Assembly (NCBI GenBank): GCA_027001995.1
Contig: JALTLO010000115.1
Span: 33,029 to 48,644, forward strand
Direction of reading: 5' to 3'
From: Planctomycetota bacterium
GTDB taxonomy: Bacteria; Planctomycetota; GCA-002687715; DRQF01
DNA length: 15,616 nt
The position numbers and the translations under genes were made by a program. Numbering within the stretch: the first letter of the stretch is position 1; every line of letters starts with the position of its first letter. The notes beneath the pieces are model-generated. The model worked only from the letters and a program-made list of their open reading frames with translations, was not told where the DNA came from and did no database searches. This document shows positions 130 through 15,616 of the stretch, piece after piece.

Positions 130-158
130 TCGAAATCGAAACGGAATTTCGTTTCATG

Positions 159-190
159 GGGGCTCTCCTGCGGGAGGGCCCCTTTTTTTT
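159..190 (+). terminator. Rho-independent terminator
   Basis: GGGGCTCTCC-TGCG-GGAGGGCCCC forms a 10-bp stem with one G-U pair, followed directly by T8 (183-190). It lies 30 nt after the TAA at 129. A smaller hairpin, GAAACGG-AATT-TCGTTTC, precedes it at 138-155. Confidence 0.9.
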
Positions 191-242
191 GTGCAAGAAG
201 AAGCTCAGTCTTCCTTTTGTGCAAGAAGAAGCTCAGTCTTCC
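187..242. repeat. Perfect 28-bp tandem duplication (TTTTGTGCAAGAAGAAGCTCAGTCTTCC x2)
   Basis: Identical copies at 187-214 and 215-242 with no spacer. The second copy contains the stop codon of the minus-strand gene (233-235). Confidence 0.95.
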
Positions 243-760
243 AGATCGTCAATGAGTGAGTCAATGATCCCCGTCGGCAAAGAAACGGTAGCACCATGTT
301 TGTCCAAGACATCCCCCCATTCATCATCGCTCATCCCAGACTCAGCAAGAAACCTGGCAACGAGAGCATCCCCAGCTCCATGGTCCAGATCGAATAAGCT
401 GTCTAAGTCATTTCCTTGGACATCCAAGGCTAGGTGAGTCAATAGGATGAGCCCATCTTCATCCGTCAGTTCCCCCAACGCCTGGTTCCAAGAATCAATC
501 TTTGAGGTGATCTCATTCAACGCAGCCAAAGTAAAAGCAGTGGCGTGGTAGATGGGTGTCCGTCCATCCAAATCACCCGTCAGAATAAGATTTCTTGTGT
601 TTGTCAGAGCCTGCTTGAGGCAACCCTTAGCTATTTCTTCATCGTTTGAGACATGAAAGGCCAGATCAAAGTTGGGCGCATAGATGCGCCCAAGGACATT
701 CTCAAGAGCGTCCAAATTCCCCTTGAGTGCATTGATGAGAACATAGTCCTTCTTCGCCAT
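233..760 (-). CDS. Hypothetical acidic protein with a degenerate ECF sigma-70-like layout (regions 2 and 4)
   Basis: 175 aa with SD AGGGGGAG just upstream of the ATG. LINALKGNLDALENVLGRIYAPNFDLAFHVSNDEEIAKGCLKQAL follows the hydrophobic pattern of ECF region 1.2/2. NQALGELTDEDGLILLTHLALDVQGNDLDSLFDLDHGAGDALVARF follows region 4 (AL..L....R.VL.L....LS..EIA..L....GTVKSRL.RA). The CDS is secure; the fold call is tentative. Confidence 0.6.
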   Translation of the reverse strand: MAKKDYVLINALKGNLDALENVLGRIYAPNFDLAFHVSNDEEIAKGCLKQALTNTRNLILTGDLDGRTPIYHATAFTLAALNEITSKIDSWNQALGELTDEDGLILLTHLALDVQGNDLDSLFDLDHGAGDALVARFLAESGMSDDEWGDVLDKHGATVSLPTGIIDSLIDDLED

Positions 761-836: not shown

Positions 837-2714
837 TCAGTTCAGCCACATACGCATGTGCTTCATTTCGTCAACAAGTTCCTCAAGGACGTCTCCCGTG
901 GAACCCCTCAAAAGAACATCAGCGATAGAATCAAAGTCCGTCGCCGTGTAGTTGACGATAATAAGTTTGGCACCATTGGACGCGGCCCGGGCCACAAGAG
1001 ACGCCACGGGCTCAACGCTCAAGGAAGTACCCGCCACAAGAAGTAGATCACATTGATCAATCAATGTGAGCGCTTTTTGGCTCGACTCCTGTTTCATGGG
1101 TTGGCCAAAGGCGATGGAATCTGGCTTGAGAAGTCCTTGGCAGTGGAGACAATAGGGAACTTCGGTTCCGTGGAGAATCCAACGAAAAACCTCATCTCTC
1201 GAATATGCCGCCCCACAGCTCAAGCAACTGACGCCGAATTCATCACCATGAATCTCAACAACACGCTCTGCTTTATTGCCAGCCCTTTGATGCAAACGAT
1301 CAACATTCTGGGTGATGATGCCTGAGAGTTTACCGATTTTCTCAAGGTCAGCGAGAGCCCGATGTGCCTTGTTCGGTTTTGCTTCACGGAGCAAGACGTA
1401 GAAATCTTGGCTCATCCGCCAATAGGTCTTACGGGCATTTTCATCCCGAAGGAAAGCAGAGTAGACCAGATCCGCCGGGTCATAGGCAGTCCAAGCAATG
1501 ATCCCAGAACGATAGTCGGGGACACCAGATTCAGTGCTGATTCCAGCCCCCGTCAAGACCACAACGCGCTCGCTGGCAAGAAGGTGATTGACAGCTTTCT
1601 TGATGGACTTAGCGGGTACTCCTGGAGGTTGAGGTTTCTGCATCTCTTCGACATCTTGCCAATAGCGCATTCCAGCCGCTCGACTCGGCCCAAAATTGGG
1701 CACGGCATCAGAGCCGACGCGATAAAGTGGTACAGGCACTGGCAAGAACTTGAGGATGGGCTTAGGAGCAAACCGCAAGATCCCCAAGGCTACGATGGCC
1801 GTAAGGGCAAAAGGAAGAGTCAAGAGCGGCAGCTCGAGTTGTTCGAAAAACAACCCTGTAACTTGCCAAAGCGGAGCCGCCACCATCATCGACGCCACTG
1901 CCAGGAGAAAGCTGCGCCAACTTGCGTGAACGAAGAAAAAACCGAGGGCCAACCCCAGAGGTGCTGCGGTAAACCAAGTGAAACCTGGGTAGCGGGGGGC
2001 ATTCGCACCCAAGAGAAGCCCAGCGACGCTCAAAGCCAAGGCAACTGAGACAAGCACCGCGGGAATGCGCCGAGGATTCTCAATGGCGTAACCCAACAAG
2101 AGCAAGACGGCCACGGGTAAATGAGGTAGTCCAGCGTCAAACCAAAGGCGCCAGGCATCTTTCAGGCCAGCGAGGCCATGCCAATGGACATCAACGAACG
2201 ATGGAAAATAAGCATCCGGAGACAAAGTCAGCACGCCAAGACCAACGAAGATCTTGCTCATACCCCAAACAGAAAGCATGGACGGAAAAGTGAGGGCTGG
2301 AAGACCCGGTCTGTCCGACCACCCAGTCAGGGAATAGAGCCGCATCAGGAACCCGGATGTTGCAGAAGAAAAAAGGACCAGCATCATGGGCCAGCCATAG
2401 TCCACTTCCACCGCAGGAACCAATCCTTCGGGGGTCACAAAAGCAATACTACCCAAACCGGCCAATACGCCGTTGTAGCCGAAGACACCACTTTCGACCA
2501 TCAGCCGATCGGCGCCCAGCAAGCGGGCGACGAAGCTCGACACGAGAGCGCCAGCTAAGGCACTCGCACCGGCGAGGGGATGCAAGACGAAAAGAGCGAT
2601 AAGAAATACTAATCCCGATGCGGACCCTGAGGCGAAGAATAACAAGCCGTGACTCTTCAACAGAGTTCGGACTTGGTTCTCAACCCCCGTTGACCAATGC
2701 CTGATCAATGTCAA
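837..2714 (-). CDS. Fusion protein: N-terminal urea-transporter (UT)-family membrane domain plus C-terminal NAD-dependent sirtuin (Sir2/CobB-like) deacylase domain
   Basis: UT domain (~1760-2690): many hydrophobic helices, GVFGYNGVLAG, and twin signatures LPALTFP and LPLLTLPF. Sirtuin domain (~840-1605): TGAGISTESGVPDYR, KPNKAH, TQNVDRLH, EIHG catalytic His, CLSC/CLHC zinc ribbon, GTSL, IIVN. The frame is uninterrupted. Start is TTG at 2714 (overlapping the upstream TGA) or TTG at 2708 (better spacing from SD GGGGAG). Confidence 0.92.
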   Translation of the reverse strand: MTLIRHWSTGVENQVRTLLKSHGLLFFASGSASGLVFLIALFVLHPLAGASALAGALVSSFVARLLGADRLMVESGVFGYNGVLAGLGSIAFVTPEGLVPAVEVDYGWPMMLVLFSSATSGFLMRLYSLTGWSDRPGLPALTFPSMLSVWGMSKIFVGLGVLTLSPDAYFPSFVDVHWHGLAGLKDAWRLWFDAGLPHLPVAVLLLLGYAIENPRRIPAVLVSVALALSVAGLLLGANAPRYPGFTWFTAAPLGLALGFFFVHASWRSFLLAVASMMVAAPLWQVTGLFFEQLELPLLTLPFALTAIVALGILRFAPKPILKFLPVPVPLYRVGSDAVPNFGPSRAAGMRYWQDVEEMQKPQPPGVPAKSIKKAVNHLLASERVVVLTGAGISTESGVPDYRSGIIAWTAYDPADLVYSAFLRDENARKTYWRMSQDFYVLLREAKPNKAHRALADLEKIGKLSGIITQNVDRLHQRAGNKAERVVEIHGDEFGVSCLSCGAAYSRDEVFRWILHGTEVPYCLHCQGLLKPDSIAFGQPMKQESSQKALTLIDQCDLLLVAGTSLSVEPVASLVARAASNGAKLIIVNYTATDFDSIADVLLRGSTGDVLEELVDEMKHMRMWLN

Positions 2715-4081
2715 CTCCCCTTCGGCATCAGACTGTCAGGAACACTTTCCAATGCCAAAGCGTCGGCCACCGTCTCTTCTCGCCGAATCACGTGAACTTC
2801 ATCATCCAACGCCATAACGTAATTGGGTCGGGAATAAATGAACTGCATGGACTGACTGAAGTTATAGGCCCCAACCTTTCGAATTGCATAGACGTCACCA
2901 GGACGTGGAGAAGGCAAAGTCACCTTGGGCCGCACCACATCGATCTGCATACAAAGAGGACCGAACAATTTCACCCGCTCTGTGGGGCGTGGCTCAGTAG
3001 CGATAGGCGTGATCTCATGATCATACCAATAGGCTGTTGGCAAGATGTTGACGCCGGCGTCAATAATAGCCGCCCGTCCTCCGCCCCGCAGTGGCTTCAC
3101 CGAAACAACAGTCGTAATGATGTCGCCACAATCGTCCACCAGAGCACGGCCCGGTTCCAAAATCAACTCGGGCTCATAACCCTCTTTTTCTTTCGCCCGT
3201 ATGAGAGGCTCTGTCACACAGTCGGCATACATTTCTGGAGTAGGAGATGTGGCCGTTCCTTGGAGCATCTGACCCCGTAGGGTATTCGATGAAGCATACC
3301 CTCCTCCCATATCAATGGAGCCAGGGGCAACGCCAAATTTATCCCTCAGTCGAAGAGCCAGTTCCACAAGAGCTGACGCTCCTTTGCGGTATTGATCGGG
3401 ATTAGGAATATAGGTGCCCACATGCATGTGCAAACCAGCAAGTTCGAACTCAGGATTCGCCAAAATTCGCTTGGCCATGGCCATGGCATCACCACTTGCT
3501 AAATTAAAACCGAATTTATCCCAAGGCGGGTAACTCACATCCATATTGACGCGAATGCCGATACGTTTCTTGCCAGGAATATCTTTGGCCAGACGTTCAA
3601 CACGCAAGAGCTCATCGTGATTGTCCAAGTTTACTTGAGACCCATTCTCGAAGGCCCCAATCAGCTCCGCGTTCTTTTTCCAAGGCCCGTTAAACGTGAT
3701 GTCTTCCCCAGGAATTCCCAATCGCCGGCAGACGGCATACTCGAATCCTGACACCACCTCCATTTTCGCACCTTGCTGATACAAGAAAGCGACTAAGGAA
3801 CTCAGGTAGTTCGTTTTCACCGAGTACGCGACGTGCATCTTCTCGTAGTGCTGCTTAAATGCCCCGACGAATCCCTCGTAACTTTTCTTCAGTTGTTTGC
3901 CATCGAAGATCACCAGAGGTGATCCGTACTGTTCAAGTAAAGCAAGCGGGTCATGTCCGGCAATTCGGTCCATTGCCTGTGCTTGACGTTGGCTTAAGGG
4001 CGACCTTGTCGTCATAGGCCGATCTAAGGGAATGACCTTGGGAGCCTCATAAAGTCGCGTAGTTTTCTTCGCCTTTGTCAT
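2711..4081 (-). CDS. Group IV (alanine-racemase fold) PLP-dependent decarboxylase, LysA/BtrK-like; substrate unknown
   Basis: YGSPL, YSVKTN (PLP lysine), FNGPWK, DKFG, HMHVGT, DMGGG, EPGRAL, DAG, GPLCMQID, VGAY. ATGA overlap with the upstream gene at 4078-4081. Confidence 0.92.
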   Translation of the reverse strand: MTKAKKTTRLYEAPKVIPLDRPMTTRSPLSQRQAQAMDRIAGHDPLALLEQYGSPLVIFDGKQLKKSYEGFVGAFKQHYEKMHVAYSVKTNYLSSLVAFLYQQGAKMEVVSGFEYAVCRRLGIPGEDITFNGPWKKNAELIGAFENGSQVNLDNHDELLRVERLAKDIPGKKRIGIRVNMDVSYPPWDKFGFNLASGDAMAMAKRILANPEFELAGLHMHVGTYIPNPDQYRKGASALVELALRLRDKFGVAPGSIDMGGGYASSNTLRGQMLQGTATSPTPEMYADCVTEPLIRAKEKEGYEPELILEPGRALVDDCGDIITTVVSVKPLRGGGRAAIIDAGVNILPTAYWYDHEITPIATEPRPTERVKLFGPLCMQIDVVRPKVTLPSPRPGDVYAIRKVGAYNFSQSMQFIYSRPNYVMALDDEVHVIRREETVADALALESVPDSLMPKGS

Positions 4082-5031
4082 CGGCCAATCCTCTCCAACA
4101 AAGTACTTTGATCAATTGCAAAATCTATCGGTGCGTCGGCGTAGTAGAGACCTGAAGATGTGACGACTCCCGATTCTGCCGATTTCATCGCCGCCATCAA
4201 ATCACTTTCACAAGCCACAAGACAAGAACTGGGAAGAGGCATCGAAGCAACAAACCGAGCTTTTCTTTGTCCTGGCGCGCTTAACCACAGCGTCTGAAAG
4301 AAACCACTTGGCAGCTTAAGGTGAGTCAAATCGTCGATTGCTCGATTCCAGACCCGACCATCTACAGTTCTACCCATGGCCAATCGCCACGATGGCCGCA
4401 TGGAGTCAGCTCTAAAAAAAGCATGATGGCACCCTTTATCGTTCTCGAAATAGTGCAACCCCATGAACAAATCCCTCCCCAAGGAAGGAATCAATGCACA
4501 GGGGCCGACTCCCTTGCGGACAAGGGAAGCGAGCCGAAACCAAGCTTCACCTCCATCCTCCACCGCCACCAGGACGCCGTCCGGCTTCAAGATCCAGCCA
4601 CCATGAAAGATCTTCGCGCAGAGCTTACGGTCTGGTTTCGAAACGATCACCTCGTGTTCAGCTATAGGAACTTCCGCCACCGCCGCCGCTGCCAGAGATG
4701 CGAATCCTCGTGGCGAATCGAGGAGATCTTCCAAGGCAGATTGCCATGAATCATGTTCTTGATCACTCCGTAAGGCGTCTAACCACTCTAAGGCCGCCCG
4801 CGTTCCCGGCACCACAAGGTCATCTGGCCCCAGATCCTCAATCACCTCAAGGAGGCCAGATCCATCAACGCACTGGGCAAGGGAATCTTGCTGCCATCCA
4901 GAATCCATGGGAGAAACAGTCCAGCATTGATGCTTGACCTCCAAGCGGCGGAGCATGGATGCCAATGCTGCTCCACCGCCACCGTCGGGACCATCGTCCA
5001 AGTCGACAATATGTATGTTCCTATCTGCCAT
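4078..5031 (-). CDS. Degenerate ATP-grasp-like protein, apparent paralogue of 7474-8577
   Basis: 317 aa, translationally coupled on both sides. It is collinear with the active ligase: IVDLDDGPDGGGGAALASMLRR vs ISGLDSGTNPHPGTAVAMALKR, LVVPGT vs VLLPCL, SGLYY vs AGIYF. It lacks the ExNxR motif. Confidence 0.65.
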   Translation of the reverse strand: MADRNIHIVDLDDGPDGGGGAALASMLRRLEVKHQCWTVSPMDSGWQQDSLAQCVDGSGLLEVIEDLGPDDLVVPGTRAALEWLDALRSDQEHDSWQSALEDLLDSPRGFASLAAAAVAEVPIAEHEVIVSKPDRKLCAKIFHGGWILKPDGVLVAVEDGGEAWFRLASLVRKGVGPCALIPSLGRDLFMGLHYFENDKGCHHAFFRADSMRPSWRLAMGRTVDGRVWNRAIDDLTHLKLPSGFFQTLWLSAPGQRKARFVASMPLPSSCLVACESDLMAAMKSAESGVVTSSGLYYADAPIDFAIDQSTLLERIGR

Positions 5032-5032
5032 C

Positions 5033-7477
5033 CTATTTCCTCAACCCTTTGTTGATGGCTTCCAAACCTTGAGAAGCTGTTTCCAAGCGCGGCTCCTTTG
5101 CCAGTGCTTTCAAGAAGTAGCTCCTTGCCCGTGCTGGTTTACCCATTTGAAACCATGTCCAACCCAGGGCGCTCAATAAATCCACCCCTAAATCCTTATC
5201 ACGGCCTTCTCGCTTTTCGACTTTTTGAAACCGCCGCAAAGCTCGCTTAGTGAGACCAGCACTGTAGAGATTCCAGCCAAGAGTCATGTCCAAAGCCCGC
5301 CACGCTGCCTTATCGGCAGCGGTCTTGCCAAGAGTTTGGATCCAAGCCTCAGCATATTTTTCGGCTTCGTCGAATTTCTTCGATGCGCTGCAGGCCAAGG
5401 CCAAACCTTTCTTGTGCAAAGCTTCACCGGGTTCGAGTTCAACGGCTTTGGTGAAGTTCGCAACCGATTTTTCGTACTTGCTCCGGTTGTAGAAAGCCCA
5501 CCCCAACGTACCGTAGAGGGGGCGAAACTCCTCAAACTTAGACATCCATTCAGAAAGTTCTGATTCGGCAATGTACTCAGGGTCGGAATTAACCACAGCC
5601 GTGAATGCAATGCGAGCTTCGATGTGTCGGTTCTTAGCAATAAGCATCCGGCCATAACGATCATTGAGTTCAGCATCCGTGGGAAAGTCCTTAACCCACT
5701 GTGCCAAGAGATCAAAGACCTCTTCCCCACGATTCCATTCAATGAGTGCCCGGGCCAGGAGCTTACGAGGCCGAGGGTCGTTAGGAAGTTGAGCCAAAAG
5801 TGGTTCTAAGACTCGTTTCGCATCGCCATACTCACGCAGACTCACCAAGGCCCACCCCAATCCGACACCGGCATCGGTCAGTTTTGGATTTCTTTGCAAT
5901 GCCGAACGAAAGAGTTTGGCAGCATCTCTAGGTCTGCTTTGTAGTCGGGCAATGTGCCCAAGGGAGTAATCGATCAGGTCGATGCGCGCCCGAGGGAATC
6001 TCTTGGCAGGATCTTGCCTCAGATTCTTGAAGATTGCCGATGCACCGTCCAATTCTCCGGTGCCTATAAGAGCCCAGGCCCGATTGTAGTCCTCAAAACG
6101 CCACACTTGAATCAGTTTCATTCCCTCGATTGCAGGGGAATAGTCCGGCATTGCTGCCAGAGATTTTTGGAAGCTCATCTCGGCTTCCAGGTATTTCTTT
6201 TGCGCAATCCTCACATAACCAAGGCCGGCATGAGCATCTGCCCATTCACCTTGAAGTTCAAGGGCCTTCTCAAACATGGTGGCAGCTTCATCCGCTTCTC
6301 CCAGCCGTAAATGAGCCCAGCCCGCAATCGTAGAAGCCGACAGCTCAACTTCCGTTGTTGCACTTCCATCTGCATTCGGGACCCGCTGATCACGCTGAGG
6401 ATCCTGCCCTCTGTCATGGAGAGACTTAGTGATCCTTAAGGCACCCAAGTTGTCGCCTTGATTGAGAGCACACAGGGCGTCCCCAAGAAGCATTTGGTCG
6501 CGTTCGACATTGGTGGCAGCCGAGCGAAAAACCTGTTGGGCGCTTAAGTACTGCCCAAATTCTGTCAGTGCAAAGCCATAGTCGACCAAGAGACCATTGC
6601 GAGACTTATCCTGGCGAATCCAGGCGAGTAGATCAGCAGTGGCAGCGCTTGGGGACATCTCAAGAGCCCGGCGAAACAATTGAAACGCCTTATCTTTGTC
6701 GCCCTTCTTATTGAGGGACCAGGCCATGCCGTACACAGCACCCCAACTTTGAGGAAAGAGCTCCCGAGCTTTTTCGAAACGCCTCAATGCCGCAGTTGAA
6801 TTGCCCGAATAATAAGCGCACCAACCGTGACTCAGTCGGACTTGCAAATTGTTCGGGTCATACTTGATGGTATGTTCGAAAGCGATGTCAGCTAAACTGT
6901 ATTTCTTACGAGCCAGTTCCACGAAACCAATCCCCGCACTGGTCACGGGATCGTTGCGAACAATGCGATTGGCTTTTTTCAGGTCCTTGAGAGCTTTTTG
7001 GTAGAGCCCAAGGTAGTAATAGCAATAGCCGCGCCCGCGATAGCAACGATTCAAAATATCGTCGTGAGGCCGCGGACGTTTTTCCAGGATGGCGTCAAAA
7101 GTCGCAACCGATTCAGTATATCGGCTTTGAGCCAGCAACGTTTCCGCACGAACGATCTCCCCGAGACGGGCGTTCTTAACGCTCTCGAGGCCCATTTTCG
7201 AATAGCGATAGTTCTTGTCGATCGAAAGCGCTTTCTTGAAGCAAGTTTCTGCTTGATCAAGATCGCCACGAAAGAAATAACACCAGCCCAAGCCGTCTTG
7301 AATCTCATGACTCTTGGGGTAAAGACGGGCATCTTTGGCCAACAATTCAAGAGCTACATCATATCGTTTCTGTTTGAAGTAGTCCCAACCAGTGAGACCA
7401 CCCTTCTTTGAACTTTGTCCCAGAGATGTTCCCACAATGAGGAGAACAACAAGCACGATCCAGGAGAAGCGTTTCAT
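5033..7477 (-). CDS. Large exported tetratricopeptide-repeat protein
   Basis: 814 aa with Sec-type signal peptide MKRFSWIVLVVLLIVGTSLG. Many TPR units carry a recurring (L/I)GW motif (GLGWCYF, SHGWCAY, IAGWAHL, GLGWAL, TLGWAFY, TLGWNLY, ALGWTWF). ATGA overlap with the ligase stop. Confidence 0.9.
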   Translation of the reverse strand: MKRFSWIVLVVLLIVGTSLGQSSKKGGLTGWDYFKQKRYDVALELLAKDARLYPKSHEIQDGLGWCYFFRGDLDQAETCFKKALSIDKNYRYSKMGLESVKNARLGEIVRAETLLAQSRYTESVATFDAILEKRPRPHDDILNRCYRGRGYCYYYLGLYQKALKDLKKANRIVRNDPVTSAGIGFVELARKKYSLADIAFEHTIKYDPNNLQVRLSHGWCAYYSGNSTAALRRFEKARELFPQSWGAVYGMAWSLNKKGDKDKAFQLFRRALEMSPSAATADLLAWIRQDKSRNGLLVDYGFALTEFGQYLSAQQVFRSAATNVERDQMLLGDALCALNQGDNLGALRITKSLHDRGQDPQRDQRVPNADGSATTEVELSASTIAGWAHLRLGEADEAATMFEKALELQGEWADAHAGLGYVRIAQKKYLEAEMSFQKSLAAMPDYSPAIEGMKLIQVWRFEDYNRAWALIGTGELDGASAIFKNLRQDPAKRFPRARIDLIDYSLGHIARLQSRPRDAAKLFRSALQRNPKLTDAGVGLGWALVSLREYGDAKRVLEPLLAQLPNDPRPRKLLARALIEWNRGEEVFDLLAQWVKDFPTDAELNDRYGRMLIAKNRHIEARIAFTAVVNSDPEYIAESELSEWMSKFEEFRPLYGTLGWAFYNRSKYEKSVANFTKAVELEPGEALHKKGLALACSASKKFDEAEKYAEAWIQTLGKTAADKAAWRALDMTLGWNLYSAGLTKRALRRFQKVEKREGRDKDLGVDLLSALGWTWFQMGKPARARSYFLKALAKEPRLETASQGLEAINKGLRK

Positions 7478-8577
7478 TTCTTGCTTTCCGACAAAAGGTT
7501 GTCTTTGTCATGTTGCTCAGTGCGAACCCCAAGCTCGTTGCTTAGCACGGCATCCCAAACCTTGAGACTATTACTGGAACCGTATGATTGTATGTGCCCC
7601 CGGGAGAAATAGATCCCTGCTTTCGGGCTCGGAACGAATTCCGGGTTCATCCCCGCAGCCTCGGCGACCGCTGCATGAACAATGGGAAAGTCGATTTCCG
7701 TTGCGAAAGAAATCCAAGCTGGAAATCGCCCATTCACTTCGATCAACAAGAAGTCACCTGTTGTGGCATCCTTCATGAATTCCAATTCAAAAGGACCTTG
7801 CCAATTGAGCACTTCAAGGAGTTTCCGCGCCACTTGGTCTAACTCAGGGTTTGCCACCGTAACGCCCGAGGTCGCTTTGCCAGAAGAGGTGGTATTCCCC
7901 TTCTTGACGCTCACAGACCCCAGGAGCCCTCGACGCCCCACTACCCCAGCAACAAGGTATTCAACGCCAGCGCGACACTCCTGAGCCATCACGGGATAAC
8001 CCCATTTTTTTGCCATCTTGCGAAACAAAAATTCGGCTTCTTCTTTGTCAAAGGCAAGTTCAGCATCTGCCAATGCGCCTTTAACATAGAGCGGAAAAGA
8101 CCAACCATCCAAGGGATGGAGCTGGCCCGTGTCATAGAGAACACTTGTTCTGGGAGTGAGCAAATTGGCCTGAGAGGCGAGCTCAGACAAATTCCATTTG
8201 AAGCGCCGCTTGACGGAGTCTTCTTGAGGCACCAAAGAGTGTATGCCAATCTCTCGGAGAGGATCTCCTAAGCGTGCGACGGTGGGCAAGTCAGAATCCA
8301 AGCAAGGCAACAAGACATTCAGGCCAAGGTCATGGTGAATGCCAGACAAAGAGCGCATGTACCAATCTTCATGGTCCCCGGGCCAAGGAACCAGAGCGAC
8401 ATCATCGAATAGGTCCTCCATGAATGCACCTGGGATCATGGGATCGTAGGCCAAGGCAATGAGGCGACCATGAAAGTTGGGGTCCCGCTTCAGCGCCATC
8501 GCCACCGCCGTTCCTGGGTGTGGGTTCGTTCCGGAATCAAGCCCACTGATTCCAACGACCAATTCAGAATCGAGCAT
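7474..8577 (-). CDS. ATP-grasp (carboxylate-amine) ligase
   Basis: FPLYVKG, VMAQE, GVEY, WQGPFELEF and the catalytic motif FLLIEVNGRF. ATG at 8577 is preferred over TTG at 8583 because of its spacing from GGGGGTGG. Overlaps the end of the PqqD-like gene. Confidence 0.9.
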   Translation of the reverse strand: MLDSELVVGISGLDSGTNPHPGTAVAMALKRDPNFHGRLIALAYDPMIPGAFMEDLFDDVALVPWPGDHEDWYMRSLSGIHHDLGLNVLLPCLDSDLPTVARLGDPLREIGIHSLVPQEDSVKRRFKWNLSELASQANLLTPRTSVLYDTGQLHPLDGWSFPLYVKGALADAELAFDKEEAEFLFRKMAKKWGYPVMAQECRAGVEYLVAGVVGRRGLLGSVSVKKGNTTSSGKATSGVTVANPELDQVARKLLEVLNWQGPFELEFMKDATTGDFLLIEVNGRFPAWISFATEIDFPIVHAAVAEAAGMNPEFVPSPKAGIYFSRGHIQSYGSSNSLKVWDAVLSNELGVRTEQHDKDNLLSESKK

Positions 8578-8848
8578 CTTCAACCACCCCCAGCCTGACT
8601 AGGTCAAGAAGACAGCGTTCAACATCCCCCCGCACAACTTCTTCATCGACGTCAAAACCTTCGACCAAAGCCGCAATAATCTGGGAGCGTCCGGCGCCTT
8701 GCTGCAATTGCGATAACACCAAATGGGCGCTATCATTGAGCAACAGGACTTGCCCCGATTCGGGAATCCGCAGCAGCAGCCCCCGATCGCTGGAATCCAA
8801 GTCGAATTCAACTTTGAGGCTCAGTTTCGCCTCGCTTGTCTCAGACAT
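8564..8848 (-). CDS. Stand-alone PqqD-family protein / RiPP recognition element (RRE)
   Basis: 94 aa with the classic three-strand plus three-helix pattern: LLLRIPESGQVLLLNDSAHLVLSQL...SQIIAALVEGFDVDEEVVRGDVERCLLDLVRLGVV. GGGGG SD upstream. Confidence 0.9.
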   Translation of the reverse strand: MSETSEAKLSLKVEFDLDSSDRGLLLRIPESGQVLLLNDSAHLVLSQLQQGAGRSQIIAALVEGFDVDEEVVRGDVERCLLDLVRLGVVEDARF

Positions 8849-8964: not shown

Positions 8965-10671
8965 TTATCGGCTCAACAGACTCAAAGCCTGCCTCACCGC
9001 CTTCGATAGCACACGATCCTCAGGATCCCGGCGAGCATATTTAATCACATTCCTTACTTGTCGGCGACTTAAGTGCCCTTTTCCTTGTCCCTTCTTAAGA
9101 ACACGCAGCACCGAAAGATGAACACTTGGAGGAAAATCGTACAGTTGCGGTGCATGACCCGCCAAGTGAGCAGCCAAAGCCCCCACAGCCGTCTTTGGAC
9201 GTTCCGTGGTTTCCACCGTCTCCAGAAGCTCCAAAGCACGGATTCCGGATGCTTTTCTTAGGTTCTTGATCGCCTCGTCTCGGCGGCCTTCATCAAGAAG
9301 TCGGCGCACGTACAATAAATTCCTGGCATCGTCAGCCAAGGATCCTTGATGAGATTCAGTTGGCGCATAGGTTGCGGACAATGGAGCAAATCGTAGGCGA
9401 CGCTCTAGATTCTCGAGAGCCTTGGGGGCCGACAGGTCACCTCCTTGAATAGCAGCCCTAAAGGCCTCCCGAGCCGCTTCTGAATGACCAAGCAATTCCT
9501 CGGCCTCACCAAGAATCCCAGGTGGACAGCTCTCTTTCGCCAACTCGATGAGGGGCGCGATGACATCAATACGCTTGATACCGATTGCAGAACGAAGAGC
9601 TTCAGCCCCCAGGCGCCCTCGATGTTTGTTGTCCAAGACCCAGTCGATCAGAAGGTCATGAAGGCCAGAACGCCTAAACACTTGTGCGCAGGCCAATAGA
9701 TCTTCCGGCTCCGAATCCAACCAAGCTGATGCCGCCTCCTCCGAGACATAGGGAGAGACGGCCCAAGAGGATTCCACAATTAGAGGAAGAAGTTTAGCAA
9801 GTTTTCGATCTTTCTTCGCGAATATCAGCAGGTCTGGCCCTGAGGCATGCCAACCCACGGCACAGGCCGCAGCAAAAGCAGAAACTGTGTCGTCATGGTT
9901 ATGACGCCAACGAGACCATGCCCAACCCCAAGCACTCTCTAAGTCGAGAGAATTCCGGCCCATGGCAGCTCCAAAAGCTCTGCTGGCCGCTGCATAGTTG
10001 CCGTCTTCATAGTGACACCAACCAATGAGTGCCAAAGGCGCCGGCGCCATCTTGTTGAGATTCGCCGCGTGCCCAAAAATCGGTCGCGCGGCTCTGCGCT
10101 CCCCCATGGCTCGATAGGCACTGGCTGTCCCATAGAATGCATCCATGTGCCGCGGATCAACACGAGCCGCCCGCTGAAAGAAATCAAGTGCCACCCGAGG
10201 TAACCCCGCAGACATCTCCACCCACCCAGCCCCGCATAGAACAGAAGTCAAAGCCTCCGCCGGAAGGCGACGTCCAACAAGTTTCAACGCCGACGCAAAA
10301 GCTTCTCGGGCTTGGTCAACGTCTCCCAACTTAATTAAGGCATAGGCTTGACTCAGGGGTTCATAACGATGTCTGGCCAGAGCATCTGCTTGAAACCGAA
10401 GCCCAGTGTGCTCGGGGTAGCTCAAACATGCGTCGTCCAAGAAACGCTGAGCCTCGGCCTCCCGCCCCACTTTCTGCAAAGCGATGGCATAGGCGCGAGC
10501 AGCATCGGCAGAAAATTCCGAGCGGGCAGCCAACTCGTCCATCACCTCCGCTGACAATCCCTCAATAGTGGCCCCTAGGAGGGCATCTCCCCCTTCGTAG
10601 GGGCGATCCCGTCGCCGACGACGCCAGAGAAAGCGCCCAAAGGCGAAGACATTTTTGAATTGATTAGTCAT
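8965..10671 (-). CDS. TPR-repeat protein, no signal peptide, Arg-rich N-terminus
   Basis: 568 aa, Ala-rich and helical. TPR units include GAGWVEM..ALDFFQRAARVDP and LIGWCHYEDGNYAAASRAF. The central part is collinear with modules of the 814-aa TPR protein. Confidence 0.8.
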   Translation of the reverse strand: MTNQFKNVFAFGRFLWRRRRRDRPYEGGDALLGATIEGLSAEVMDELAARSEFSADAARAYAIALQKVGREAEAQRFLDDACLSYPEHTGLRFQADALARHRYEPLSQAYALIKLGDVDQAREAFASALKLVGRRLPAEALTSVLCGAGWVEMSAGLPRVALDFFQRAARVDPRHMDAFYGTASAYRAMGERRAARPIFGHAANLNKMAPAPLALIGWCHYEDGNYAAASRAFGAAMGRNSLDLESAWGWAWSRWRHNHDDTVSAFAAACAVGWHASGPDLLIFAKKDRKLAKLLPLIVESSWAVSPYVSEEAASAWLDSEPEDLLACAQVFRRSGLHDLLIDWVLDNKHRGRLGAEALRSAIGIKRIDVIAPLIELAKESCPPGILGEAEELLGHSEAAREAFRAAIQGGDLSAPKALENLERRLRFAPLSATYAPTESHQGSLADDARNLLYVRRLLDEGRRDEAIKNLRKASGIRALELLETVETTERPKTAVGALAAHLAGHAPQLYDFPPSVHLSVLRVLKKGQGKGHLSRRQVRNVIKYARRDPEDRVLSKAVRQALSLLSR

Positions 10672-14306: not shown

Positions 14307-14945
14307 ATGAGCAAGCCTTTTGTCATCTCCGTGGCTGGGCCAGGATCCAATTCGGGCAAGACCCATTTGGTCTGCGCCTTGCTGCGCCATCTCGCCACCC
14401 TCGGTGATGTGGGAGCGGTCAAGATCGCCACCTCGACTCCAGACCACATGTGCGCCCGTACCAATCTGCCCTGCGACTGTTTGCGCTTTGAGGGACGGAT
14501 GCGCCTGCTCAAAGATCCGGCCTACATCAACAAGGTTGGCAAAGATACAGAAGCTATGTTCGCTGCTGGAGCTCGGCCAACCTGGTGGCTTCAGACAACT
14601 TCGGATGTTCAAATTGAATCGGCCCAGTTTTTGGTCGAAGAACTCTCTGGGCCAAAGATTTGGGTGGTAGAAGGCGCTGGCCCCATTCGCGGGGGTCTTG
14701 CTGACCTAGCAATTCTGGTGGTGAAAGCGGATGGCTCCGAACCCAAAGAGTCTTGGTTCGACCTTTTGCCCCAGGCCCATGTCATCGCCCGAAGCCACGA
14801 GCACGAAATAGACACCGCCATCAACATGAATCCCTGGACGACCTCAGTGCATCATCGACCCACCTTAGAGTTCTCGGGGCGGGCTCAAGAACTGCCGAAG
14901 AAATTCATCGACTTCTTGACTCATTTCTTCAATGGCGAATCATGA
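14307..14945 (+). CDS. MobB-like P-loop NTPase with a Cys/His-rich insert
   Basis: VISVAGPGSNSGKT Walker A, VGAVK, GKDTEAMFAAGA (compare MobB GKDT.R...AGA), VVEG. Insert HMCARTNLPCDC. Confidence 0.65.
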   Translation: MSKPFVISVAGPGSNSGKTHLVCALLRHLATLGDVGAVKIATSTPDHMCARTNLPCDCLRFEGRMRLLKDPAYINKVGKDTEAMFAAGARPTWWLQTTSDVQIESAQFLVEELSGPKIWVVEGAGPIRGGLADLAILVVKADGSEPKESWFDLLPQAHVIARSHEHEIDTAINMNPWTTSVHHRPTLEFSGRAQELPKKFIDFLTHFFNGES

Positions 14946-15616
14946 TACGGGCATCAACCACAGCCGCTTCCTTGGCTCTCTCCCCCACGATGAAGGGATT
15001 TAAGTCCATCTCAATGATATCCTCCAAATCCATAGCCATCTGACTGAGGCGTAGGATGCAAGACTCGACTATTCTCCGATCAATGGGAGGTTGATTGCGA
15101 TAGCCGTCCAGCAACACATGTCCTTGGAGGGAATTCAGCATTTGCACTGGATCTCCCGAACGCAGAGGCGCGCACCGCAGAGCCACGTTGCGCCAAATCT
15201 CAACTTCCGTCCCACCAAAGCCCACAACAATCTGAGGGCCGAATTCAGGATCTCGTGACATACCTAAGAGCAATTCCCGATGTCCCGTGGCCATAGCCTG
15301 AACAATGAATCCAAGCCCTTTGTGCTCCTCAGACAAACGGGCATGTATCTCATTGGCCGCTGAAAGTACTTCATCGGCACTGGCCAAGCCCACACGAACT
15401 GCATCCACATCAGACTTGTGAATCAAGGTGGGGGCGTCAGCTTTGAGCACCACAGGGTATTTGATCTGGTGAGCCACCCCTGCTGCCGCCTCTGGATCGG
15501 AAACTCGCCGCGATTCCACCTGTGGGATTTTGTAAAGCGAAAGCAAACGCGCCACATCGCCCGGTTCAAGCCACAGCTGTTTTTTTTTCTTGGCACGTCG
15601 GATGCTCTTCTTCGCC
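14929..15616 (-). CDS. 3' part of an ADP-forming acyl-CoA ligase / Pat(YfiQ)-family protein (C-terminal ATP-grasp domain); 5' end lies outside the window
   Basis: YPVVLKA...IHKSDV..V, IVQAM, ELLLGMSRDPEFGPQIVVGFGG, EMDLNP, VDAR. The frame stays open upstream of 15555 to the window edge (AKKSIRRAKKKKQLWLEPGDVARLL). Confidence 0.88.
   Translation of the reverse strand, partial: AKKSIRRAKKKKQLWLEPGDVARLLSLYKIPQVESRRVSDPEAAAGVAHQIKYPVVLKADAPTLIHKSDVDAVRVGLASADEVLSAANEIHARLSEEHKGLGFIVQAMATGHRELLLGMSRDPEFGPQIVVGFGGTEVEIWRNVALRCAPLRSGDPVQMLNSLQGHVLLDGYRNQPPIDRRIVESCILRLSQMAMDLEDIIEMDLNPFIVGERAKEAAVVDARIMIRH

Follow-up and report, generated by a model that had tools for sequence, protein, structure and literature searches.

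The 15,616-nucleotide (nt) stretch analysed here (the window) comes from a Planctomycetota bacterium (assembly GCA_027001995.1, contig JALTLO010000115.1, positions 33,029 to 48,644 of the forward strand). It contains on its reverse strand, at positions 837–2714, a gene for a 625-amino acid (aa) protein in which a membrane domain of the urea transporter (UT) family is fused to a Zn-finger sirtuin (Sir2) domain. The UT-Sir2 architecture is real and conserved, and is absent from published descriptions as far as these were searched. The gene is the final member of a seven-gene cassette, and in homologous cassettes a peptidase of the M23 family holds the position of the sirtuin. Because two unrelated amide-cleaving folds share one C-terminal slot on the same membrane domain in homologous cassettes, our best reading, held with about even confidence, is that the fusion is a pathway-dedicated, membrane-tethered deacylase that would free an amine product at the pore. 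The parts and the order of the cassette are observed directly, and every chemical step, as well as the direction of transport, is inferred.

Architecture and extent of the UT-Sir2 fusion

The open reading frame (ORF) at 837–2714 runs through 625 codons with no internal stop; its exact start is known only to within two residues, since the database lists 623 aa. Residues 16–311 match Pfam UT (E 3.5e-28; 99 bits against a cut-off of 25) and residues 389–569 match Pfam SIR2 (E 1.5e-41, above the curated cut-off). In an AlphaFold model computed from a 29-row alignment (mean predicted local distance difference test score 85.5; predicted template modelling score 0.77), residues 1–343 match the dvUT structure 3K3F (Z 29.7, root-mean-square deviation 3.6, 307 residues aligned) and residues 367–621 match Sir2Af2 1YC2 (Z 29.6, deviation 2.0, 247 aligned). 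The continuous UT and sirtuin frame proposed in the original prediction, which was made from the letters of the window alone, is thus borne out by the ORF, by Pfam and by fold matches with Z near 30.

A whole-length protein search gave 31 matches with identities from 79% down to 29%, of which 29 (the window's own protein included) carry both Pfam domains; the named ones are from Planctomycetota. The both-domain architecture was found in 28 clusters besides the window's own, so that the fusion is not unique to one assembly. A word search with the UT part only returned six close matches. A contig from a second study (run X4, study P2) aligns gap-free to window positions 1506–3470, with 139 differences, and crosses the border between the two domains as well as that to the upstream gene. 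Although this support consists of assembled contigs and not of reads, a chimera is excluded because other clusters share the architecture and the second-study contig crosses the junction.

The domain boundary has to be corrected. The Pro-rich stretch at 1605–1760 (about residues 318–370), originally taken as an inter-domain linker, consists mostly of the C-terminal tail of the UT itself, and only about residues 353–366 of it form a true linker. A profile of 21 UT halves remains aligned through this Pro-Leu tail to the C-terminal ends of dvUT, human UT-A and human UT-B. The match to the C-terminal tail conserved among solved UTs reaches about residue 350, and where UT and Sir2 are split genes (see below), the UT stops right past the same conserved Tyr-Trp. 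The UT-fold membrane domain with its C-tail was accordingly assigned to residues 1–352 (1659–2714, reverse strand) from alignments, filter mapping and the fold match, and the linker to 1617–1658 from the AlphaFold model and the spacing across the fusions, the distance between W352 and G389 being 37–39 residues in 43 of 49 fusions. The sirtuin domain occupies 837–1616 on the same strand.

The seven-gene cassette and its distribution

The fusion closes a run of seven same-strand genes, in the order TPR, RRE, ATP-grasp, TPR, pseudo-ATP-grasp, decarboxylase and UT-Sir2, with overlaps at four junctions. The first gene (8965–10671, reverse strand as all others) encodes a 568-aa TPR protein without a hydrophobic N-terminus and is followed by genes for a PqqD/RRE peptide-binding adaptor (8564–8848), an intact ATP-grasp amide ligase (7474–8583; K168, E268 and E282-x-N284-x-R286), an 814-aa TPR protein that is probably exported, given its signal-peptide-like hydrophobic N-terminus (5033–7477), a degenerate second ATP-grasp protein of 317 aa (4078–5031), and a group IV pyridoxal phosphate-dependent decarboxylase (2711–4081), which overlaps the fusion gene by 4 nt. 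The second ATP-grasp was assigned by its position and its relatives: the window's own copy matches the family weakly, its relatives do so with E 2e-9 to 3e-29, and a profile comparison of the window-type second with the first ATP-grasp was weak (P 0.025, probability 2%) and collinear over 295 columns. The E-x-N-x-R motif is present in all 33 rows of the first ligase and in none of the 23 rows of the second (rows not de-duplicated), and the second ligase is predicted to be catalytically stripped.

The closest solved relative of the decarboxylase is FigC (7KH2; E 9e-58, compared with 3e-42 for diaminopimelate decarboxylase); BtrK was also matched. The protein remains below the cut-offs of TIGR01048 (LysA; 221 against 298 bits) and of the FslC model (213 against 500 bits). 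According to the available part of PMC7857480, FigC decarboxylates N-citrylornithine, an N-acylated diamino acid, and groups with SbnH, AcsE and BtrK. The N-terminal tail of the decarboxylase carries a YxxP motif in 26 of 29 Sir2-type rows, those of loci L091, L099 and L100 being without it. The L099/L100/L165 lineage also lacks the RRE gene, and the losses of YxxP and RRE in this lineage appear to be one co-loss event. The residue 15 positions past the Tyr (Y+15) is Arg in 18 of the 26 rows, including that of the window, Lys in 6 and another residue in 2; it is Lys in 10/10 M23 cassettes and in 6/7 cassettes that end in a UT-Sir2-GNAT triple fusion. A fixed tail Lys serving as a carrier was rejected for the window's clade, which has Arg at this position.

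Pfam searches of the seven genes detected no NIS synthetase, acyl carrier protein or major facilitator superfamily exporter; neither was a lasso precursor, a B2 protease or a cyclase/lactam synthetase present among them, the search for precursors having covered ORFs of 60 aa and longer. A promoter scan stayed at chance level (7 against 6.2 ± 2.8). In the window's genome (G000; 92% complete), no diaminopimelate epimerase was found. Five of six cassette-bearing relatives keep another group IV decarboxylase beyond the cassette copy and a 630–700-aa form, which the window's genome and genome G287 do not; only two group IV decarboxylases, that of the cassette and a 660-aa frame, were found in the former.

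Further loci were obtained from a metagenome motif scan (37 loci, 21 with a matching sirtuin frame), from a search of the 401 genomes of the window's phylum (12 full-length matches including the window's genome) and from one of a Syntrophaceae-centred order (5 of 151 genomes), and the 34 fused loci were reduced to 29 non-redundant ones. The decarboxylase gene lies directly upstream of the fusion in 27 of these; of the two exceptions, L096 breaks off within the gene, and the fusion of L113 follows other DNA with repeats (two similar stretches spaced by about 440 nt in L113:1-575, due to insertion or misassembly). Wherever enough DNA is available (24 loci), the decarboxylase is itself preceded by the second ATP-grasp. 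Two open frames of 995 and 1135 aa are not longer fusions but extend upstream over the decarboxylase gene; the proteins themselves, P0032 and P0113, have 612 and 585 aa. In the same cassette of genome G296, UT and Sir2 are separate genes with a four-base overlap, and covalent linkage of the two domains is therefore not required.

The core cassette was also found in 5/151 genomes of a Syntrophaceae-centred order and in 7/251 genomes of a Rokubacteria-centred phylum. All seven of the latter end in UT-Sir2-GNAT and have the decarboxylase and the second ligase upstream. In total, 11 UT-Sir2-GNAT clusters were identified, with names from Rokubacteria, NC10 and Nitrospinota. A separate PseH/SpeG-like GNAT gene, whose product resembles small-molecule amine acetyltransferases, heads all three Syntrophales cassettes with visible upstream DNA. 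The fused and the Syntrophales GNATs gave no cross-matches and belong to two unrelated families, indicating two GNAT recruitments. In one Syntrophales genome, the GNAT-headed cassette is directly preceded by two O-methyltransferase-like genes of the same strand (L236:5756-7872). In four loci, the RRE protein is extended at its N-terminus by a segment rich in Cys and His that may be a zinc module (L172:13627-14010, L234:8308-8709, L235:10061-10459 and L236:11361-11783). An AlgE-like barrel gene flanks three Sir2 cassettes; in the flanks of the Planctomycete-type loci, no other gene family, such as a regulator, recurs. The fusion was not found in the 401 genomes of a G402-centred phylum (all nine matches being sirtuin-only), in five further single genomes or in two Rokubacteria genomes, and none of 67 records from a plasmid collection covered 80% of the fusion query.

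Sister cassettes with an M23 peptidase

The decarboxylase is present in 26 of the 401 genomes of the window's phylum. Of 14 further decarboxylase loci, 11 run into a UT-M23 gene, in which the peptidase holds the position of the sirtuin, two have no UT and one is cut. The UT-M23 cassettes resemble the Sir2 type in their core gene order, and the RRE, ligase, decarboxylase and UT genes of the two types are homologous. They differ in having M23 instead of Sir2 and one ligase instead of a ligase and a pseudo-ligase (no second ATP-grasp in 10/10 loci showing that region), in the tail Y+15 residue, which is Lys as opposed to mostly Arg, and in the placement of their UTs on a separate branch. This cassette is likewise without a description as far as searched. 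The related decarboxylases of L213:8935-10539 and L216:125-1582 carry Thr at Y+15, and L213 has RRE and ligase genes but no UT downstream; a third cassette type may thus exist.

Topology and pore of the UT domain

Lys and Arg were counted in the inside and outside loops of 49 fusions, the loops being set from the model and the UT topology. They favour the inside loops in 48 of the 49 (means 7.3 against 1.9), so that the sirtuin lies on the cytoplasmic side, as originally predicted. The UT fold, the invariant motifs of the sirtuin (see below) and this placement together support the proposal of a membrane-tethered sirtuin with catalytic motifs that are, as judged from sequence, intact.

UTs are known as passive urea pores. 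The filter residues of dvUT, with the So, Sm and Si sites assigned as in PMC4357013, were mapped on 51 Sir2-type, 28 M23-type and 120 other UTs after de-duplication at 90%. The inner and middle parts of the filter are kept in the Sir2-type UTs (F27 in 48/51, F/Y80 in 48/51, L84 in 47/51, L129 in 47/51, T130 as Ser/Thr in 46/51 and T294 in 44/51). In the outer half, a conserved Asn is replaced by Thr in 38/51 and L247 of dvUT by Pro in 48/51, and the Q24 position is mostly Ala or Leu. Two UT signatures of the second repeat occur in 0/51 Sir2-type UTs, compared with 82/120 and 90/120 other UTs, and in the model the loop past the second pore helix has one residue, compared with five past the first. 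The pore is thus asymmetric, and because its outer filter half is remodelled, urea transport by the channel is unlikely. The score against TIGR03441 (Yut) is 67.8 bits, below the cut-off of 274.6, and neither urease gamma nor urea carboxylase was found above cut-off in the window's genome.

In a FastTree phylogeny, the Sir2-type UTs, including the split ones, lie on one side (Shimodaira–Hasegawa (SH) support 96), apart from the M23-type and canonical UTs; these trees were quickly built, contain long branches and do not tell which form replaced the other. The premise that UTs are stand-alone channels proved too strong, since 15 of the 48 UT representatives scanned carry M23 and others EF-hand or ankyrin domains. 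UTs fused to EF-hands or ankyrin repeats were observed in P0060, P0078, P0118, P0123, P0152 and P0134.

The sirtuin domain

Sirtuins are familiar as soluble enzymes that strip acyl marks from proteins. The motif set recognized in the original prediction is complete: G389-A-G-x-S, Q469-N-V-D, the catalytic H489 and the four Zn cysteines (C497, C500, C522 and C525) are invariant in all 49 aligned fusions. The domain also bears the family-typical residues Y401, D437/F438, E492 and S533. Tyr at the Phe/Tyr site of the cofactor loop is found in 42/49 fused sirtuins compared with 17/113 unfused controls, Phe438 in 48/49 compared with 12/113, Ser533 in 41/49 compared with 2/113, and Glu three residues past the catalytic His (His+3; E492) in 44/49 compared with 5/113, two of these five being contig-cut fusions. 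These counts are not independent, as kin share such residues. A scan of genome contigs with the full alignment gave general sirtuins alone, and those 80 loci were reused as controls.

Met136 of SIRT6, which is its residue at His+3, borders the acyl channel at some 10 Å from the ribose, as described in the available parts of PMC8389836 and PMC8148055. By analogy, an acid at this position would suit an amine-bearing acyl group, although this is a hint only. The Tyr-x-x-Arg acyl pocket of desuccinylases, as given in the accessible portion of PMC4253809, is not kept: its Tyr/Arg pair corresponds to S435/F438 in the ungapped register, and HMMER's gapped register gives R433, which is variable in the family. 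The CobB model of NCBIfam scored 239 bits against a cut-off of 320.

The cassette sirtuins form one clade containing 46 of the 49 fused rows and the split form (SH 94, FastTree). The remaining three (P0029, P0030 and P0031) belong to shorter UT-Sir2 fusions of 555–560 aa, possibly an independent fusion. A separate soluble sirtuin is encoded by four of six cassette-bearing relatives. The sole other sirtuin match in the window's genome (L218:1261-1782, contig C93) is a CobB-like frame of 173 aa with its middle missing, including QNxD, the catalytic His and the Zn cysteines, owing to an internal deletion or an assembly collapse. Among PADLOC defence models, one 33-residue match was obtained (E 6e-4).

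Proposed function and alternatives

Under the preferred reading, the RRE would recruit the ligase to the decarboxylase through the YxxP tail of the latter, and the ligase would acylate an amino-acid side-chain amine. Removal of the alpha-carboxyl by the decarboxylase would give an N-acyl-diamine or aminoacyl-amide resembling acyl-lysine, the N-acyl amide of which the sirtuin, at the cytoplasmic mouth of the channel, could cleave with NAD+. The freed amine would then pass the repurposed pore toward the periplasmic TPR scaffold and, in some lineages, the outer-membrane barrel. The sirtuin would fill the job done by M23 in the sister cassettes. Of the options originally offered, the evidence agrees best with a sirtuin whose substrate is coupled to transport. 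A broader version is advanced tentatively, as a possibility with an appreciable chance. It takes the UT fold as the exit pore of an amide-linked amine product with interchangeable M23 and sirtuin release heads, and the sirtuin as a biosynthetic NAD-driven de-acylase acting on a small molecule at the pore. The sirtuin would possibly remove an amine-bearing acyl group recognized by E492, with the GNAT of some lineages as a reversible protecting-group partner.

Several observations weigh against this picture. The fusion of L113 has no decarboxylase directly upstream, the three fused sirtuins P0029–P0031 fall outside the cassette clade, and no homologue of the barrel was found in the window's genome. 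The strict repeat-2 patterns of the pore also fail in 28/28 M23-type UTs, so that their loss is not Sir2-specific; M23-type UTs nonetheless keep Asn (28/28) and Leu (25/28) at the outer positions that are altered in the Sir2 type. Glu at His+3 is found in 8/11 UT-Sir2-GNAT clusters as well, and E492 may be structural. The window's clade has no GNAT and carries Arg at Y+15, which leaves its acyl donor unexplained. Finally, GNAT/Sir2 pairs fit a protein acetylation switch equally well, and the GNAT-bearing cassettes mostly keep the Lys at Y+15 (6/7).

In such a switch, an acyl mark on a cassette protein, with the Lys 15 residues past the decarboxylase YxxP as the likeliest site, would be set by the GNAT and removed by the tethered sirtuin, so that the pathway would track acetyl-CoA and NAD+ at the membrane. 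This is the rival that deserves most attention, and we regard it as possible but doubtful. Two unrelated GNAT families have been recruited (11 fused clusters and the separate Syntrophales gene), the tail Lys is kept in the triple-fusion cassettes just mentioned, whose sirtuins have a small apolar His+3 residue like ordinary deacetylases, as well as in every M23 cassette, and protein lysines are established sirtuin substrates (PMC4253809, available part). The switch leaves the interchange with M23 unexplained, however, and Sir2 cassettes mostly have Arg at the proposed site. The sirtuin of the window's clade keeps every catalytic residue despite the tail Arg and the missing GNAT, and must therefore have another substrate. 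Because the switch fits the Lys-keeping GNAT lineages but not the Arg-bearing, GNAT-less clade of the window, it and the deacylase reading may both hold, in different lineages.

A transceptor of the Amt kind, in which a solute in the UT pore gates the sirtuin and signalling proceeds by deacylation of host proteins, the channel being more a receptor than a conduit, was the other option of the original prediction; we consider it unlikely. The retained inner and rebuilt outer filter halves and the fixed inter-domain spacing would suit it, as would the Tyr for Phe in the cofactor loop, a variant that lowers kcat in Sirt4 according to the available part of PMC5686155. It is not supported as the principal reading, because the fusion almost never stands alone, the peptidase can take the same slot and UT and Sir2 also occur as split genes; in addition, the Planctomycete-type flanks share no regulator-like family. 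Less probable still is a membrane-anchored general housekeeping deacylase or a non-catalytic NAD/acyl sensor. No other intact sirtuin was found in the window's genome, but the separate soluble sirtuins of most cassette-bearing relatives and the own clade and pocket residues of the cassette sirtuins argue against a housekeeping role, and the invariance of H489 speaks against a pseudo-enzyme. NADases with a Sir2 fold often serve as defence effectors, and the patchy distribution of the cassette (12/401 genomes) would be compatible with an anti-phage NADase coupled to a membrane sensor. This explanation is very improbable, as the domain has the classical Zn-finger deacylase fold, closest to Sir2Af2, the PADLOC match is confined to 33 residues and the neighbouring genes encode biosynthetic enzymes.

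Flanking regions of the window

Directly past the fusion, the ORF at 233–760 (reverse strand) encodes a 175-aa acidic orphan. It was rejected as a cassette member or precursor, as it was otherwise found in one same-genus locus only and has no Pfam or NCBIfam match; its Atlas matches are hypothetical proteins, with sub-0.9 ones leading to sigma-70 region 2. At 158–183 (forward strand) lies a strong hairpin with a T-run, resembling a terminator for a convergent forward-strand gene that ends outside the window. At the other end (14929–15615, reverse strand), the C-terminal ATP-grasp_5 domain of an acyl-CoA synthetase/Pat-like protein is cut by the contig end and was not seen as part of the cassette.

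Comparison with known systems

The open literature that was searched yielded no description of the architecture, in line with the original statement that no example was known, or of the cassette; subscription papers and supplementary tables could still list the architecture. The main text of PMC9503650 contains neither 'urea' nor 'PqqD'. New here are the revised border between the domains, the asymmetry of the pore, the division of the decarboxylase tails into Arg and Lys types, the two GNAT recruitments and the pseudo-ligase that accompanies Sir2 but not M23. If the preferred reading is true, a sirtuin would be a dedicated pathway enzyme mounted on a membrane channel, and the UT fold would export a compound that is not urea. 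The exchange of M23 and Sir2 amounts to a natural experiment on an orphan cassette. The chemistry of sirtuins is confined to N-acyl amides of lysine-like amines and yields detectable O-acyl-ADP-ribose, and an assay of the 260-residue soluble domain could reveal the acyl group of the product. In the UT-Sir2-GNAT triple fusion, a single chain would unite writer, eraser and pore.

Each domain is a member of a known family, yet both fall short of the function-level models (Yut and CobB). The membrane domain shares the fold, the topology and the C-tail of dvUT and mammalian UT-A and UT-B (PF03253), as well as the inner filter residues (F27, F80, L84, L129, T130 as Ser/Thr, and T294). It differs in the shortened second pore-helix loop of the model, the lost repeat-2 signatures and the changes at L247 and Q24, and in being joined to an enzyme and encoded within a biosynthetic cassette. 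The sirtuin domain has the Rossmann fold, the Zn module and all NAD-binding and catalytic motifs of Sir2Af2, Sir2Tm and CobB (PF02146), but is membrane-tethered, is without the desuccinylase Tyr/Arg pair and has Y401, D437-F438, E492 and S533.

In its logic, the cassette appears akin to FigA/FigC of rhizoferrin and BtrJ/BtrK of butirosin but is a member of neither. With these and with SbnH of staphyloferrin, it shares a group IV decarboxylase that would act on an acylated amino acid, following a ligate-then-decarboxylate logic, and BtrJ is an ATP-grasp protein; the RRE, the TPR proteins and UT-Sir2 have no counterpart there. The leader of lasso peptides carries a YxxP motif. The discrete PqqD/RRE protein and the YxxP on the decarboxylase tail recall the lasso-peptide B1 RRE, but none of precursor, B2 protease and lactam synthetase is among the cassette genes. 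Amt-type channels fused to signalling domains also combine a channel fold with a cytoplasmic C-terminal enzyme. They differ from the UT-Sir2 fusion in fold, and here the output domain is a predicted deacylase in a biosynthetic rather than a two-component context.

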